Assembly (NCBI GenBank): GCA_963799485.1
Contig: CAWCXJ010000006.1
Coordinates: forward strand, 640,001 to 704,000
Direction of reading: 5' to 3'
DNA from: an uncultured Trueperaceae bacterium
GTDB taxonomy: Bacteria > Deinococcota > Deinococci > Deinococcales > Trueperaceae
Length of the DNA: 64,000 bases
Shown here: positions 1 to 4,578 of the stretch, piece after piece
Layout: each line of letters opens with the position of its first letter
Position numbering within the stretch: position 1 is the stretch's first letter
Translations under genes and position numbers: made by a program
Notes under the pieces: model-generated
Databases searched by the model: none
Seen by the model: the letters and a program-made list of their open reading frames with translations, nothing else
What the model was told of the DNA's origin: nothing

Positions 1-1455
1 GAAGCAGGCTTTCCCATTGCCAGCGACGGCGACTTCGACTGCGTGTACCAGATTGCCAGAGAGGTCAAAGGCCCGGTGATTTGCGGTCTGGCCCGGACGC
101 ATAAAATGGATATCGAGCGGGCGGCGCAGGCTATTGAACCCGCCGAGCGGGGCCGGATTCACACCTTTACGAGCGCGTCGAAGGTGCACCTCGAGTACAT
201 CCTCAAAAAGACCGAGGACGAGGTTTTGGAGCTGTCCGACGAGATGGTGCGGTATGCCAAACGCTTTACGGACGACGTGGAGTTTTCTGCCCAAGACTGT
301 ATGCGGGCAAGTCCCGAGTTCGTTTACAAGCTCGTCCGGACGGCGATTGCAGCGGGCGCGACGACCGTCAACATCCCCGATACGACCGGTTACGGCACGC
401 CCGAAGAGTACGGCGCACTCATCAAGAGCATCTTTAAGAATGTTCCTGAAGCCCATGACGTTTCAATCTCAACGCACTGCCATGACGATTTAGGGATGGC
501 GGTCGCCAACAGCCTCGCCGCCGTCGAAAACGGTGCCACGCAGATCGAATGTACCGTAAACGGCATCGGCGAGCGGGCGGGGAACACCTCGCTCGAGGAG
601 TGCGTGATGGCGCTCTATACCCGCCGCGACCATTACGGCGCGGACATCGGCGTCCAGACCAAAGAGCTGTATAACGTCTCGAGGCTCGTACAGCGGCACA
701 CCGGCATGATGGTGCCGCCCAATAAAGCCATCGTCGGGGATAATGCTTTCGCTCACGAGTCGGGCATCCACCAGGACGGCGTGCTGAAGCACAAGCAAAC
801 GTACGAAATCATGAACGCCGAACTCGTCGGACGCGAGGCGGGCGTGTTGGTCATGGGCAAACATTCGGGCCGTCACGCCTTCAAAAAGGCGCTTGTAGAT
901 ATGGGCTACGATTTAGAGAACGAAGTCCCCGACTACGGTATCAGCGCGGACTCGGTCGATGTGTTGTTCAAACGCTTCAAGGATTTGGCCGATCGCAAGG
1001 GGGCTGTCAACACCGACGACATCCGCGCGTTAGTTGAAAACGAAGTGATGAAAGTCGCGGAGACGTACCGGCTCGAGCACGTCCAGTTTCAGTCCGGCAC
1101 CGGTGAGATGACGCCTTCGGCTTTGGTGCGCCTCAGCACACCTGAAGGTACGCTGGCAGAAACCGCTTTGGGTGACGGCCCGGTAGACGCCGCGTTCAAG
1201 GCGCTCGGCAAGCTGACGCCGGTGCCGTTTGTTCTGGAGTCTTACGACCTCAAAGCTATCGGTAAAGGCACCGACGCGCTCGGTGAAGTTTCGATTCGCG
1301 TCAACAGCGACGGGCAAATTGTCCACGGACGGGCGATTTCGACCGATGTGGTTCACGCGTCGGTCTTGGCCTATGTTGACGTTCTCAACAAACTGGCGGC
1401 GGGGGTCGGGCGCAATAAGGCGGCGGCGAACCAGATTACGATGACGACGCCGTAA
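1..1455 (+). CDS. leuA: 2-isopropylmalate synthase (5' end lies before the window)
   Basis: Frame is open from base 1 (EAGFPIAS...). Motifs HCHDDLG, NGIGERAGN, AHESGIHQDG and the C-terminal regulatory GDGPVDA. Confidence 0.96.
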   Translation, partial: EAGFPIASDGDFDCVYQIAREVKGPVICGLARTHKMDIERAAQAIEPAERGRIHTFTSASKVHLEYILKKTEDEVLELSDEMVRYAKRFTDDVEFSAQDCMRASPEFVYKLVRTAIAAGATTVNIPDTTGYGTPEEYGALIKSIFKNVPEAHDVSISTHCHDDLGMAVANSLAAVENGATQIECTVNGIGERAGNTSLEECVMALYTRRDHYGADIGVQTKELYNVSRLVQRHTGMMVPPNKAIVGDNAFAHESGIHQDGVLKHKQTYEIMNAELVGREAGVLVMGKHSGRHAFKKALVDMGYDLENEVPDYGISADSVDVLFKRFKDLADRKGAVNTDDIRALVENEVMKVAETYRLEHVQFQSGTGEMTPSALVRLSTPEGTLAETALGDGPVDAAFKALGKLTPVPFVLESYDLKAIGKGTDALGEVSIRVNSDGQIVHGRAISTDVVHASVLAYVDVLNKLAAGVGRNKAAANQITMTTP

Positions 1456-1467
1456 ATTGAAAACTAA

Positions 1468-1491
1468 GAGAACCGCGACAAAGCGGTTCTC
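1468..1491 (+). terminator. Hairpin just after the leuA stop
   Basis: GAGAACCGC-gacaaa-GCGGTTCTC, perfect 9-bp stem, no strong U-tract. Confidence 0.55.
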
Positions 1492-1509
1492 CTAATAGAA
1501 TCAAGTTAT

Positions 1510-2190
1510 ATGAGTATTGTCGAAAAAGTCTGGAGCTTCGAAATTCACCTATTTCCGGTGATGGTAGGTCTAATGTTATATGAAGTTCCAGCATTATTGA
1601 GAAGACTCAGAAAGGTTTATTACGTCCCTGTATACTTTTCCGTTTTTCCTTTTCGCGCAATCAACCAACAGTTGAGCACCTATCTAGCAGATGATTTCTT
1701 AGGAATAGGCGAGAATTTAGGGAAGAAAGTTGTAGAACGGCTACGTCGCCGCTTAATTTTTACATCGGTAGTATCTGCTTTCCTTGACGCAATTCTAATA
1801 CCTTTAGTTTTCGGTTCCCTAGCTGCTTTCCTATACTCTCGAGAATTGCTAATAGAATTTATTGCAGTCTTCATAACTTTCAAGTTTGTGCTTATTACCA
1901 GTTCAGTATGGCGGTTCCACTATTTTTCTGTAGCCTCGTCTAGTAAAACTTTTCTTTTAGCTTTGGTCTACATGGCTTACATTTATGTAGCAGTTCAGAT
2001 GATGCTTACAGGGTATCAGTGGGCTTCCCCTTTCGTGCTAGCAAATGATTGGTTAGGTCTATTTCAGTCTTTCAATCGAATTGTTGTTCGTAGATTTCTC
2101 GTGCAAGGAATATTCTTTGTTGTTTTCGTTGCGTTCTTTACTAACTACCTTGCTGATAGAGAATTGAGGGCGGAGAACCAATCACGTTGA
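1510..2190 (+). CDS. Hypothetical multi-pass membrane protein (about 5 TM segments), low GC
   Basis: 226 aa ORF with several long hydrophobic runs. Sampled lines are 33-40% GC versus about 60% in the flanks. TAGAAT lies 8 nt before the ATG. Confidence 0.8.
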   Translation: MSIVEKVWSFEIHLFPVMVGLMLYEVPALLRRLRKVYYVPVYFSVFPFRAINQQLSTYLADDFLGIGENLGKKVVERLRRRLIFTSVVSAFLDAILIPLVFGSLAAFLYSRELLIEFIAVFITFKFVLITSSVWRFHYFSVASSSKTFLLALVYMAYIYVAVQMMLTGYQWASPFVLANDWLGLFQSFNRIVVRRFLVQGIFFVVFVAFFTNYLADRELRAENQSR

Positions 2191-2206
2191 AGTTAGGTGA
2201 GCTATT

Positions 2207-2677
2207 TTGATAGAAGCCGACAAAAAGAAGCTGGAGAGAGATGTTGAGTACCTACTATCTCTAGCGGATTCAAATCACGTTCACACTGTCGCTTTAGTTG
2301 CAACAGAGATGCACTTTAGGACATCCGTAGATAGATTGCTCGAATTCGCAGCATATCCTATTTTATATTGCTGTTTTAGACAACAGCTTCTGCACATGAG
2401 CGTAGGAATATCGCAAATTCAGGTTCAGCACTGGGTGGACTTAGGATTTATCAGGTCTGCTAGACCAAGTCTACGCAACATGCTGGTGTTCTTTGATCCG
2501 AGATTAAACTTGCTTGCATGTGAGGCTTACATTGCTCAACACGCAATAGGGCACAATCCATTCGATTTGCTGTCCTCGTACACCGGGAAGGTAACAACTC
2601 ATCAACTAAGCATTTACATTCATGCGCTGAACTTCTCAAAGAATCTGTGCGAAAGGACAAAGATATGTCTAGATTGA
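2207..2677 (+). CDS. Hypothetical protein with lysozyme-like / lytic transglycosylase-like motifs, low GC
   Basis: TTG start with AGGTGA upstream. Motifs ALVATEMHFR, SVGISQI, DPRLNL..CEAYI and LSSYTG occur in the order of SLT/lysozyme-like motifs. Confidence 0.6.
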   Translation: MIEADKKKLERDVEYLLSLADSNHVHTVALVATEMHFRTSVDRLLEFAAYPILYCCFRQQLLHMSVGISQIQVQHWVDLGFIRSARPSLRNMLVFFDPRLNLLACEAYIAQHAIGHNPFDLLSSYTGKVTTHQLSIYIHALNFSKNLCERTKICLD

Positions 2678-4275
2678 CTATCGAAATCTACGACACTACC
2701 CTCCGTGACGGCACCCAGGGCACCGGCTTCAGCCTCACCTCGGATGATAAAGTCGCCATTGCCAAACGTCTGGACGCCTTTGGCGTCGATGTCATCGAAG
2801 GGGGCTGGCCGGGGTCGAACCCTAAAGATGCTGATTTTTTTGAGCGGATGAAGTCGGTAAAACTGGGTCACGCTAGGCTCGCCGCCTTCGGCATGACCCG
2901 CCGTAAAGGGGGCGTCACCGAAGACGACGCCAACCTCAATGCGCTTTTAGACGCCGGTACGCCTATTGTTACGGTGGTCGGCAAATCGTGGACGCTCCAC
3001 GTGACCGAAGCGCTCGGGACGACCCTCGACGAAAACCTCGCCATGATTCGGGATTCGGTGGCGTATCTGCACGCTCGGGGGCGCGAGGTCTTTTACGACG
3101 CCGAACACTTTTTTGACGGTTATGTGGCGGACGCCGAGTACGCTTTGGCAACCTTGCGTGCAGCCGCCGAAGGAGGCGCGTCGCGCCTGATCCTTTGCGA
3201 TACGAACGGTGGGTCGTTGCCTGCTCATGTCGCCGAGGTTACGGCCCACGTTCACGAAACTTTTGGCGTCACCATCGGGATTCACACTCACAACGACGCC
3301 GAGCTTGCCGTCGCCAACACGCTCTCGGGTATCGGGGCCGGGGCGCGGCAAGTCCAGGGAACGATTAACGGCTACGGCGAACGCGCAGGCAACACGAACC
3401 TCATCAGCGTGATTCCGGCACTTACGTTCAAGCTTGGGTACACACAACCGCAAGATTTGACGCAGCTCCGTGAGCTTTCGCGCTACATCGACGAACGCGC
3501 CAACATGCAGCCCAACATCCGCGCACCTTACGTCGGTGACGCAGCCTTCGCCCACAAAGGCGGGATGCACGTGTCGGCGGTCAACAAAAATCCCGAAACG
3601 TACGAACATATCCCGCCGGAATCGGTCGGGAATATTCGGCAAGTCCTCTTGTCCGACCTCTCGGGCCGCGCCAATGTGCTGGCGAAATCGGCAGGGGGCG
3701 CGCCCGAAGAGGTGGCGGCGGTTGTCGAACGGCTCAAAGAACTCGAGCACCGTGGTTACGCCTTTGAAGGGGCCGAAGCGAGTTTTCAGCTGATGAGTCA
3801 AAAGGTGCGCGGGCACTACCGCTCGTATTTTACGCTCCACGGCTACAAGGTCTTGATCGACAAACGCGACAGCGACTTCGTACCGTATTCCGAAGCGAGT
3901 GTGCAGCTCGAGGTCGGTGGACAGCTTGAACACACCGCCGCCACCGGTGACGGCCCGGTCAACGCGCTCGACCGGGCGCTCGGCAAGGCGCTCGGGCGGT
4001 TTTATCCGACGGTGCGCGAGCTGAAACTGACCGACTACAAGGTGCGGGTGTTGTCGGGAGGAGAAACCGGGACGTCCAGCGTCGTCCGGGTGCAAGTCGA
4101 AACGACGGATGGGGTTGACACCTGGGGAACGGTCGGCGCGAGCAGCGACATCATCGACGCGTCTTACGCCGCGCTAATCGACGCCATCGAGTACAAGCTC
4201 ACTAAAGACAAGGTTGCACCACAAAAAGACGCTGTAACGACCACTGCAACGACCGCCGCAACGACCACTGTATAA
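2665..4275 (+). CDS. cimA: Citramalate synthase (LeuA-like CimA)
   Basis: YDTTLRDGTQG, IEGGWPGSNPKD, DAEHFFDG, AFAHKGGMH. ATG 2665 follows AAAGGA. Confidence 0.9.
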   Translation: MSRLTIEIYDTTLRDGTQGTGFSLTSDDKVAIAKRLDAFGVDVIEGGWPGSNPKDADFFERMKSVKLGHARLAAFGMTRRKGGVTEDDANLNALLDAGTPIVTVVGKSWTLHVTEALGTTLDENLAMIRDSVAYLHARGREVFYDAEHFFDGYVADAEYALATLRAAAEGGASRLILCDTNGGSLPAHVAEVTAHVHETFGVTIGIHTHNDAELAVANTLSGIGAGARQVQGTINGYGERAGNTNLISVIPALTFKLGYTQPQDLTQLRELSRYIDERANMQPNIRAPYVGDAAFAHKGGMHVSAVNKNPETYEHIPPESVGNIRQVLLSDLSGRANVLAKSAGGAPEEVAAVVERLKELEHRGYAFEGAEASFQLMSQKVRGHYRSYFTLHGYKVLIDKRDSDFVPYSEASVQLEVGGQLEHTAATGDGPVNALDRALGKALGRFYPTVRELKLTDYKVRVLSGGETGTSSVVRVQVETTDGVDTWGTVGASSDIIDASYAALIDAIEYKLTKDKVAPQKDAVTTTATTAATTTV

Positions 4276-4380
4276 ATGGTAGATTATACAAGTTTTTGTC
4301 CGAGTTTGGCTCGAGTTCACTGTTGGACAAAGCTTCGTAAAAGTTACCCGTTATAATGTTGTGCTGTTGTTGCATGAAAA

Positions 4381-4410
4381 TTGACAGCTCTACGGTATAA
4401 CCGCTAAAAT
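4381..4410 (+). promoter_or_regulatory. Sigma70-type promoter for gltB
   Basis: TTGACA-N18-TAAAAT. Confidence 0.6.
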
Positions 4411-4578
4411 TAAGAGCGCTGCTAGTCAGCCCCTGTTACTCATGTTGTCACTACCTGTCGCCCCATCCGGCGACGCTTGAGCCGACGCCTTATCTACCAA
4501 AACGGCAGGTACCGAGTAGCTGTCAGTTTGACCGTCACTCCCCTTTTCAAACCGTCTCTGCACGAAAGGAGCGCCCCT

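Follow-up and report, generated by a model that had tools for sequence, protein, structure and literature searches.

The locus considered here raises the question of what function could be served by two small genes of low guanine-plus-cytosine (GC) content that lie between leuA and cimA, within a conserved biosynthetic operon, in an uncultured Trueperaceae bacterium. They lie near the start of a 64,000-nucleotide stretch of contig CAWCXJ010000006.1 (positions 640,001 to 704,000 of the forward strand), which is referred to below as the window. An earlier sequence-only reading had proposed that the two open reading frames (ORFs) are a horizontally acquired system that acts on peptidoglycan or the envelope. 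The comparisons described below indicate that the pair consists of a putative muralytic enzyme, so assigned from its predicted fold, and a membrane partner, drawn from two unannotated families that are linked by adjacency and by fusion. As to how the two proteins act together, the reading tentatively preferred here, from sequence-derived evidence, is that a membrane gate is combined with a cytoplasmic wall-degrading enzyme in what may be a suicide-lysis or conflict module. The elements of the pair are as follows, numbered from the first letter of the window.

1510-2190, plus strand: ORF1, 226 amino acids, ATG start, a membrane protein with five transmembrane (TM) segments
2195-2200, plus strand: ribosome-binding site AGGTGA, 6 nt ahead of the ORF2 TTG
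2207-2677, plus strand: ORF2, 156 amino acids, TTG start, a lysozyme/SLT-fold protein

The ORF list, the GC windows and the family matches agree with the initial description of the ORFs as intact, co-oriented, separated by a gap of 16 nt, low in GC and placed between leuA and cimA.

The pair belongs to no named family. ORF1 and ORF2 are without matches in Pfam or PADLOC at E <= 1, and NCBIfam and PHROGs return one chance-level row each for the pair; the earlier reading had likewise matched it to no named system. Word-indexed searches recovered nothing for ORF1 and only the protein itself for ORF2, and a first pattern scan of genome contigs based on the ORF1 alignment was empty. A single-sequence genome search, on the other hand, recovered a relative of ORF1 in the Deinococcus genome G033 (E 5e-19), followed there by a 157-residue ORF that carries the ORF2 motif pattern, and when 363 genomes of the order were searched with a profile, seven gave matches, the window's own genome included. 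Full-length copies of ORF1 outside the window are present in G033, G120, G143 and G267, and fragments in G134 (a 35-residue piece) and G009 (a weak match with two stops); in all five full-length copies of the order, counting that of the window, an ORF2-like gene lies directly downstream. An exhaustive profile search queried with ORF2 and its G033 partner yields an ORF2 family of 140 cluster representatives at E <= 1e-3 (43 at E <= 1e-10), mostly of 130-185 amino acids. Ten of these representatives were looked up and are unnamed or "hypothetical", with one or two members per cluster; the ORF1 profile adds 8 further proteins, named only "hypothetical protein [Deinococcus sp.]". Pattern scans gave 15 metagenome loci and, with a nine-sequence alignment, seven genome loci, one of the latter identical to G267, and the genome loci span Latescibacterota, Rhodothermales, Proteobacteria, two deltaproteobacterial metagenome-assembled genomes and Longimicrobiales.

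The evidence that the two families belong together comes from the arrangement of their genes. At 26 ORF2-like loci identified with hidden Markov models over six-frame ORFs, ORF2 is directly preceded by ORF1 in 15 cases, fused to it in two, solo in eight and cut off by a contig end in one. These loci are not all independent: L046 has the same sequence as L051, the two members of L049/L050 and of L053/L054 differ very little, and L048 shares 96% identity with L014. The loci other than the 15 pairs are the following.

Solo ORF2 loci: L014, L015, L018, L052-L056
Single fused ORFs: L049 (422 amino acids), L050
Locus cut by a contig end: L048

Seen from the other gene, each of the 15 ORF1-like genes with visible context has an ORF2-like gene directly downstream, at a spacing of +16 to -65 nt in the 13 paired loci that were measured. 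Three further fused proteins occur among the representatives: P0060 (399 amino acids), which matches the ORF1 profile with 99.6% and the ORF2 profile with 99.3% probability; P0098, with E values of 2e-17 and 1e-15; and the N-terminally truncated P0072. That the genes are adjacent at 15 loci and elsewhere encode a single fused polypeptide supports the view that ORF1 and ORF2 form one functional unit, as the sequence-only reading had held, and the co-occurrence and fusion on which it had proposed to check this are both found, alongside the solo genes. The fusions carry no additional TM helix, and the enzyme domain is therefore predicted to be cytoplasmic in all forms.

Some copies of the pair appear damaged. 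A low-GC islet in G134 (L010:1000-1800) holds the 35-residue ORF1-like remnant near a 151-amino-acid ORF of no known kind and a CopG-like antitoxin gene, and seems to be what is left of a cassette that decayed or was overwritten. At L044:618-1142 the ORF2-like gene is split into 618-854 and 885-1142, as would result from breakage of the copy or from an error in sequencing.

The assignment of ORF2 to an enzyme class requires that genuine structural kinship be separated from the general resemblance among helical proteins. The AlphaFold2 model of ORF2, built from a 70-sequence alignment, has a predicted local distance difference test score (pLDDT) of 94.5 and a predicted template-modelling score (pTM) of 0.88. 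In a Foldseek-independent comparison with 48,161 chains, the top match is the Tse3 muramidase (Z 9.7, root-mean-square deviation 3.4, 144 residues) and the second is MltF (Z 8.6), with MltE at 7.4 and Slt70 at 6.7; such Z values of 7-10 are moderate, and values below about 8-13 may reflect a common helical arrangement. The next matches are Cj0843c, MltE, SltB3, Slt70, MltC, g-type lysozyme, endolysins and GH19 chitinases, and 19 of the 25 top rows are peptidoglycan or chitin glycosidases. Because the Z values are moderate, the lysozyme-fold assignment leans on the consistency of this list, on the register of the sequence motifs and on near-threshold SLT scores. The last of these are found in three of 38 ORF2 relatives, which fall just below the cut-off of the Pfam SLT family, the highest at 20.7 against 21.3 bits. 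In the Atlas, the clusters nearest to ORF2 are unnamed Uroviricota proteins (0.95) and SLT clusters (0.93), which serve as leads only.

The motif register was obtained by aligning the ORF2 family with ten true SLT domains taken from relatives, using hhalign. Although the alignment is weak (probability 3.9%, E 0.011), it sets TE(S)xFR against ES, SVGxxQ against GLxQ, NY..C..YL against N....YL and YxG against AYNxG, so that E34, the putative catalytic Glu, falls opposite the E of ES; ES, GLMQ and AYNxG are names of motifs of the SLT family. Five residues are invariant in all 70 members of the ORF2 alignment (E34, E46, G67, Q70 and G127), and R43, W76, N101 and Y125 are present in at least 90% of them. 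Compared with the SLT/lytic transglycosylase family 1 of PF01464 (Slt70, MltE, MltF, MltC), ORF2 thus has a like fold (Z 6.7-8.6), the same Glu position and the same order and register of the GLxQ-like, N..YL and Y(N)xG motifs. It differs in scoring below every sequence threshold applied, in having lost the Ser after the catalytic-type Glu (EM in the ORF2 of the window), in carrying, between SLT motifs I and II, an additional helix of about 18 residues that is specific to the ORF2 family and holds the invariant E46 and the near-invariant R43, and in having neither signal peptide nor lipobox, as judged from the hydropathy of the N-terminal segment. On the grounds of predicted fold, motif register and near-threshold scores, ORF2 is filed as a putative new, very divergent branch of the lysozyme/SLT superfamily, outside the Pfam SLT family rather than as a member of it. 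The description of ORF2 as lysozyme-like, which had been made from motifs alone, is therefore borne out by its structural neighbours (Tse3, MltF) as well as by motifs in SLT register, and its activity is predicted to be muralytic.

The known SLT enzymes work in the periplasm. In 69 of 70 ORF2 members, hydropathy shows no TM-like N-terminal stretch ahead of the Glu (the value for the window is 0.82), and because no export signal is present, ORF2 is predicted to be cytoplasmic and thus held away from the wall. Neither this predicted location nor the lack of a membrane partner at eight of 26 loci had been foreseen from the sequence. The location raises the alternative that the enzyme acts where it is made, on a cytoplasmic or inner-leaflet glycan such as a lipid-linked precursor or a phage-made sugar polymer, with ORF1 supplying or positioning the substrate. 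This would agree with the prediction of a cytoplasmic enzyme in free, fused and solo forms, and with the helix that bears E46 and R43, which has no counterpart in true SLT domains. Among the annotated neighbours of the loci, however, nothing suggests glycan synthesis, and a lysozyme fold is not known to have such an activity in bacteria, so that this explanation is considered improbable.

The partner protein, ORF1, has five TM segments in family-averaged hydropathy (about 13-32, 85-106, 110-133, 147-167 and 190-213), the number at which it had been estimated earlier. Per protein, a mean of 12.7 lysines and arginines fall on loop 1, loop 3 and the C-terminal tail, against 2.4 on the N-terminal tail, loop 2 and loop 4, and from this positive-inside bias an N-out/C-in topology is predicted, in which the outer loops measure 4 and 22 residues. 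The conserved marks of the family are an RRLxKxYYxPxYF motif past the first TM segment and a charged C-terminal tail. The AlphaFold2 model is a helical bundle (pLDDT 83.3, pTM 0.78) whose structural search reaches a top Z of 7.2, to membrane domains of ABC transporters, with no match at 8, and is treated as noise; the Atlas value of 0.83 is uninformative. A predicted complex of ORF1 and ORF2 scores 0.03 against a mark of 0.32 and is counted as evidence neither way.

The topology bears on a second alternative, namely that the pair is an accessory system for wall remodelling in which the enzyme is exported, or the predicted topology is wrong, with ORF1 as the anchor or regulator of a lytic transglycosylase outside the membrane, in the manner of FtsEX. 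The SLT-like fold, the conserved catalytic Glu, the membrane partner and the tethered fusions would all suit such a role, as would the weak, noise-level likeness of ORF1 to ABC-type and FtsX-type domains (Z 5.5-7.2). It is opposed by the lack of an export signal in 69 of 70 members, by the placement of the C-terminal tail inside under the positive-inside rule and by the shortness of the outer loops. Also against it, the pair is patchy (7 of 363 genomes in the order), lies in low-GC islets, diverges rapidly and is dispensable in all five congeners. Wall remodelling is accordingly held to be an unlikely explanation.

The best structural match of ORF2 suggests a comparison with interbacterial toxins. 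Tse3 (4luq), a muramidase effector of the Pseudomonas aeruginosa type VI secretion system (T6SS), is 15% identical to ORF2 and is likewise without a signal peptide of its own. It differs in being about 400 amino acids long, in being delivered by the T6SS and in having a soluble periplasmic immunity protein, Tsi3, while the partner of ORF2 has five TM segments and can be fused to it; the annotated flanks hold no T6SS or other secretion-system genes, although for the T6SS the genomes at large were not searched. The arrangement of a muralytic toxin with an immunity protein, one of the variants put forward originally, was rejected, the two parts being fused and ORF1 being polytopic with very short outer loops. 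What stands of the sequence-only reading as a whole is the horizontal acquisition, the functional unit, the lysozyme fold and the absence of a named system; what does not is this toxin-immunity variant, while action on peptidoglycan and a role in defence stand as proposals.

The origin of the pair is most directly addressed by comparing the leuA|cimA junction among genomes of the same genus. The features of the junction, in addition to the two genes, are these.

1..1455, plus strand: 3' part of leuA (2-isopropylmalate synthase), the left flank (NF002086, 629 bits; cut-off 532)
1456..2676: insert found in the window genome alone, about 1,220 bp with GC of about 0.4, from blastn and alignments to G001-G005 and from composition
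1463..1496: hairpin just within the left insert border, an inverted repeat (dG, folding free energy, -17.4 kcal/mol; z -6.15)
2665..4275, plus strand: cimA (citramalate synthase), the right flank (TIGR00977, 665.8 bits; cut-off 450)

The pair is present in none of the five same-genus genomes (G001-G005). Homology to these congeners ends 1-2 nt past the leuA stop and restarts about four codons into cimA, and because it breaks at both borders, the roughly 1,220 bp of positions 1456-2676 are unique to the window genome. In G002, leuA directly abuts cimA. The junctions of G003 and G004 hold an Asp/Glu racemase gene; that of G005, the closest relative (leuA 87% identical in nucleotides), holds a low-GC (0.41) DUF4145 ORF and the racemase (L024:7134-7901); and that of G001 holds, besides the racemase, a DUF3291 gene and a HicA toxin gene that has a small ORF upstream of it (L025:7419-8330). 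The racemase gene is thus kept in all four congeners that have an insert, and the window genome has none there. The insert took the place of the racemase-bearing segment, and the leuA|cimA junction is a hotspot, or variable spot. The pair is a horizontally acquired insert, as was claimed for it, on the basis of its absence from the five congeners, the breaks in homology at the leuA stop and inside cimA, and the tree described below, in which the nearest relatives of its ORF2 come from low-GC contigs and not from its own order.

Composition follows the borders of the insert: in 200-nt windows GC is 0.37-0.465 over 1501-2700, against 0.55-0.635 upstream and 0.575-0.67 downstream, with 0.39 for ORF1 and 0.43 for ORF2 proper. 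The right border lies within coding sequence, since cimA starts inside the insert, to which its ATG and first four codons belong, and shares 13 nt with the end of ORF2 (the ORF2 stop is 2675-2677 and cimA begins at the ATG at 2665; an alternative GTG start is at 2647). The border between leuA and the insert is spanned by a 151-nt contig of a public run, identical throughout to 1363-1513, so the left junction exists in the primary data; the run may be the source sample, and is therefore not independent support. The public runs share at most 0.11 of sampled words, their contigs cover 1363-1513, 1980-2199 and parts beyond 2686, and none of them is listed as an RNA run. It could be supposed that the pair consists of chance ORFs in AT-rich junk or is an assembly chimera, the host assembly being in 15 contigs with an estimated contamination of 4.63%, but homologs across phyla, conserved motifs, confident folds, the exact bridging contig and an insert end that supplies the cimA start in frame make this scarcely credible.

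The surroundings of the insert are otherwise ordinary: ilvB, ilvN, ilvC, leuA, the pair, cimA, gltB and aroA form a co-oriented housekeeping run, the upstream genes of which were identified with Pfam. No integrase or transposase adjoins the pair in the window, as had been noted, and no convincing terminal repeats or target-site duplications were found at the insert borders. The nearest trace of mobility is a 90-amino-acid DDE_3 transposase fragment about 5.4 kb upstream of the insert (L057:5859-6128, on contig C6 of G000), which lies upstream of ilvB beside a response-regulator gene and is the decayed remnant of an insertion sequence. The hairpin at 1463-1496 is not followed by a T-run on the plus strand and is terminator-like when read on the minus strand; it may insulate the insert from the operon. 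Border hairpins are present at some loci and are not a conserved feature. At L045 the pair is bracketed by two similar hairpins of the GCACAAAC...GTTTGTGC type, in the 100 nt upstream of 2770 and downstream of 3902, which recall repeat or cassette-boundary elements and were seen only at this locus among those looked at. A promoter scan gave one minus-strand match, below the shuffled mean of 2.4. Farther downstream, GC dips to 0.425-0.48 over about 250 bp between cimA and gltB (window 4201-4476), in a region with no plus-strand ORF of at least 60 amino acids.

The same pattern of small foreign islets recurs elsewhere in the family. In the Deinococcus genomes G033, G120 and G143, whose GC is 0.65-0.75, the pair occupies an islet of 1.2 kb with a GC of 0.33-0.42; the Latescibacterota copy has a GC of 0.40 against about 0.58, and the G267 copy, which is followed by a tyrosine recombinase gene, near 0.55 against 0.70. 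Two low-GC contigs, L042 (0.28) and L043 (0.385), bear the pair at their native composition, and it is with these that the window copy groups in a tree of 26 ORF2 rows (support 86/89), apart from the Deinococcus clade and from G267; the split gene of L044, L054, the duplicate L013 and the truncated P0098 were left out. In this tree all fusions fall into a single clade, while the solo copies make up three. G033 and G120 share the insertion site, purF / pair / DUF2196, at which purF is 89% identical while ORF1 is 44% and ORF2 38% identical, with almost no nucleotide homology between the two pairs; this contrast reflects either very fast divergence or replacement at a common spot. The solo genes at L014:3850-4360, L015:3849-4350 and L052:588-1046 are about 84% identical in nucleotides and have non-homologous flanks, which suggests that the single gene, a unit of about 500 bp, is mobile too. 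Within the solo clades, the ratio of nonsynonymous to synonymous substitution rates (dN/dS) is 0.23-0.59.

Among the neighbours of the cassette are GmrSD_N and HEPN genes directly upstream (L012), a DNA methylase (L016), MqsA (L008), CopG (L010), an integrase (L009) and 2H-SAK (L014). A use in conflict is suggested by the combination of tiny mobile islets, patchy spread, fast divergence and neighbours of the restriction, HEPN and toxin-antitoxin kinds. A further alternative is a system of the toxin-antitoxin or addiction kind: one protein, for example an ORF1 that depolarises the membrane, would be the toxin, the other would neutralise it, and the lysozyme fold would serve as a binding module. 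In favour of it, the genes are small and translationally coupled, HicA, MqsA and CopG occupy such spots elsewhere, and the cassette is mobile and patchy. The catalytic-type residues, however, are invariant in 70 of 70 members, which suggests an enzyme; fusion of the two parts, seen in at least two lineages, is easier to understand if they cooperate than if they oppose each other; and ORF2 is also found solo. A toxin-antitoxin pair is for these reasons regarded as quite unlikely.

A functional analogy can be drawn with the holin-endolysin cassettes of phages, such as lambda S and R. The order of genes, in which a membrane protein is followed by a small muralytic enzyme without an export signal, the overlap or coupling of the genes, and the charged C-terminal tail of the membrane protein are all traits of holin cassettes and are found in the pair as well. 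The pair differs in that ORF1 has five TM segments and 226 amino acids and belongs to no holin family, in its lack of phage context and in its covalent fusions. The likeness could be one of descent, the pair being a leftover or domesticated phage lysis cassette with no defence role, either a decaying prophage remnant or a module kept for the release of vesicles, DNA or a bacteriocin. Such an origin would account for the order of membrane protein and muralytic enzyme, for the missing signal peptide, for the many phage endolysins among the structural neighbours of ORF2 and for the unnamed Uroviricota clusters that are nearest to it in the Atlas. Several observations speak against it. No phage structural genes occur at the annotated loci, the window flanks being ilvBNC-leuA and cimA-gltB-aroA. 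No relatives were found by four pattern scans of IMG/VR or by tblastn against 50,697 phage records, methods that are less sensitive than a profile search, and tblastn of both proteins against 72,556 plasmids was also empty. There is no holin or PHROGs match, and in different phyla the pair persists undamaged, standing by itself. A phage remnant is thus not the expected answer.

The holin-endolysin-like model was chosen as the working interpretation because it is the simplest that accommodates all of the following: the two-part unit, its membrane component, a lysozyme-fold enzyme that keeps its Glu and lacks an export signal, and behaviour typical of a mobile accessory gene. Under this model the cassette would be a lysis device on holin-endolysin logic, self-contained in two genes. 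The ORF2 enzyme would remain idle in the cytoplasm, either free or tethered to ORF1, until a trigger caused ORF1 to open or disrupt the membrane; the enzyme would then reach the peptidoglycan and cleave its glycan strands, and the cell would lyse. The likely use of such a device would be abortive infection against phages, or propagation as an addiction-like selfish module.

A number of results weigh against this interpretation. With regard to mechanism, a model of simple release fails to account for the fused forms, in which the enzyme would remain attached at the cytoplasmic face, and at eight of the 26 loci the enzyme persists without its partner. With regard to ORF1, the topology is based on the positive-inside rule only, the protein has no Pfam or PHROGs match at E <= 1 and hence no holin family, and typical holins are smaller. 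With regard to ORF2, the moderate structural scores and weak profile alignment given above are joined by several null results: Foldseek gives no match at E <= 1e-3 in PDB and BFVD, where the best rows, none significant, are the phi29 tail wall-degrading enzyme, a soil phage endolysin and Tse3, and the best viral rows are SLT-domain phage proteins; the 70-sequence profile finds no PDB sequence at E <= 10; and the protein has no Pfam match at E <= 1, failing to reach the 21.3-bit gathering cut-off of PF01464, a search of the own genome with that family recovering one other gene and not ORF2. With regard to a role in conflict, several loci, among them the window and L018, have housekeeping genes only in their flanks, the defence-like neighbours are anecdotal rather than an enrichment figure, and PADLOC-DB v2 contains no family that matches ORF1 or ORF2 at E <= 1.

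The more specific proposal, that the pair is an undescribed, scattered anti-phage abortive-infection system, must be considered a rather doubtful possibility. In this proposal ORF1 would be a five-helix membrane sensor or gate, in some cases fused to the enzyme, that keeps the lysozyme-fold enzyme in the cytoplasm until infection and then admits it to the wall, with lysis ahead of phage maturation, and the 1.2-kb islet would spread by replacing the content of variable spots between housekeeping genes. The pair resembles the two-gene membrane anti-phage systems catalogued in PADLOC in being a small, islet-like and patchy operon with a TM component, sometimes placed beside restriction, HEPN or toxin-antitoxin genes. 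It differs from them in that none matches it, and in that none of the defence systems described in the literature searched was found to have a lysozyme or SLT component. No defence or lysis module that combines a membrane protein with a cytoplasmic lysozyme/SLT enzyme was found in the portion of the open-access literature consulted. The terms lysozyme, transglycosylase, muramidase, peptidoglycan and holin do not occur in the main texts of three papers on the discovery of such systems, those of Millman et al. (10.1101/2022.05.11.491447), of Vassallo et al. (10.1101/2022.05.12.491691) and of Rousset et al. (PMC9122126).

Whatever the role of the pair proves to be, the analysis defines two previously unannotated families, a divergent branch of the lysozyme superfamily with at least 140 representatives and its five-TM partner, and the locus is a clear case in which one cassette has been exchanged for another at a variable spot within a conserved biosynthetic operon. 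If the pair does act in defence or addiction by lysis, it would add to the catalogued immune systems a kind of effector not found among them, a peptidoglycan-cleaving enzyme held in the cytoplasm, and it would show holin-endolysin logic at work outside phages.

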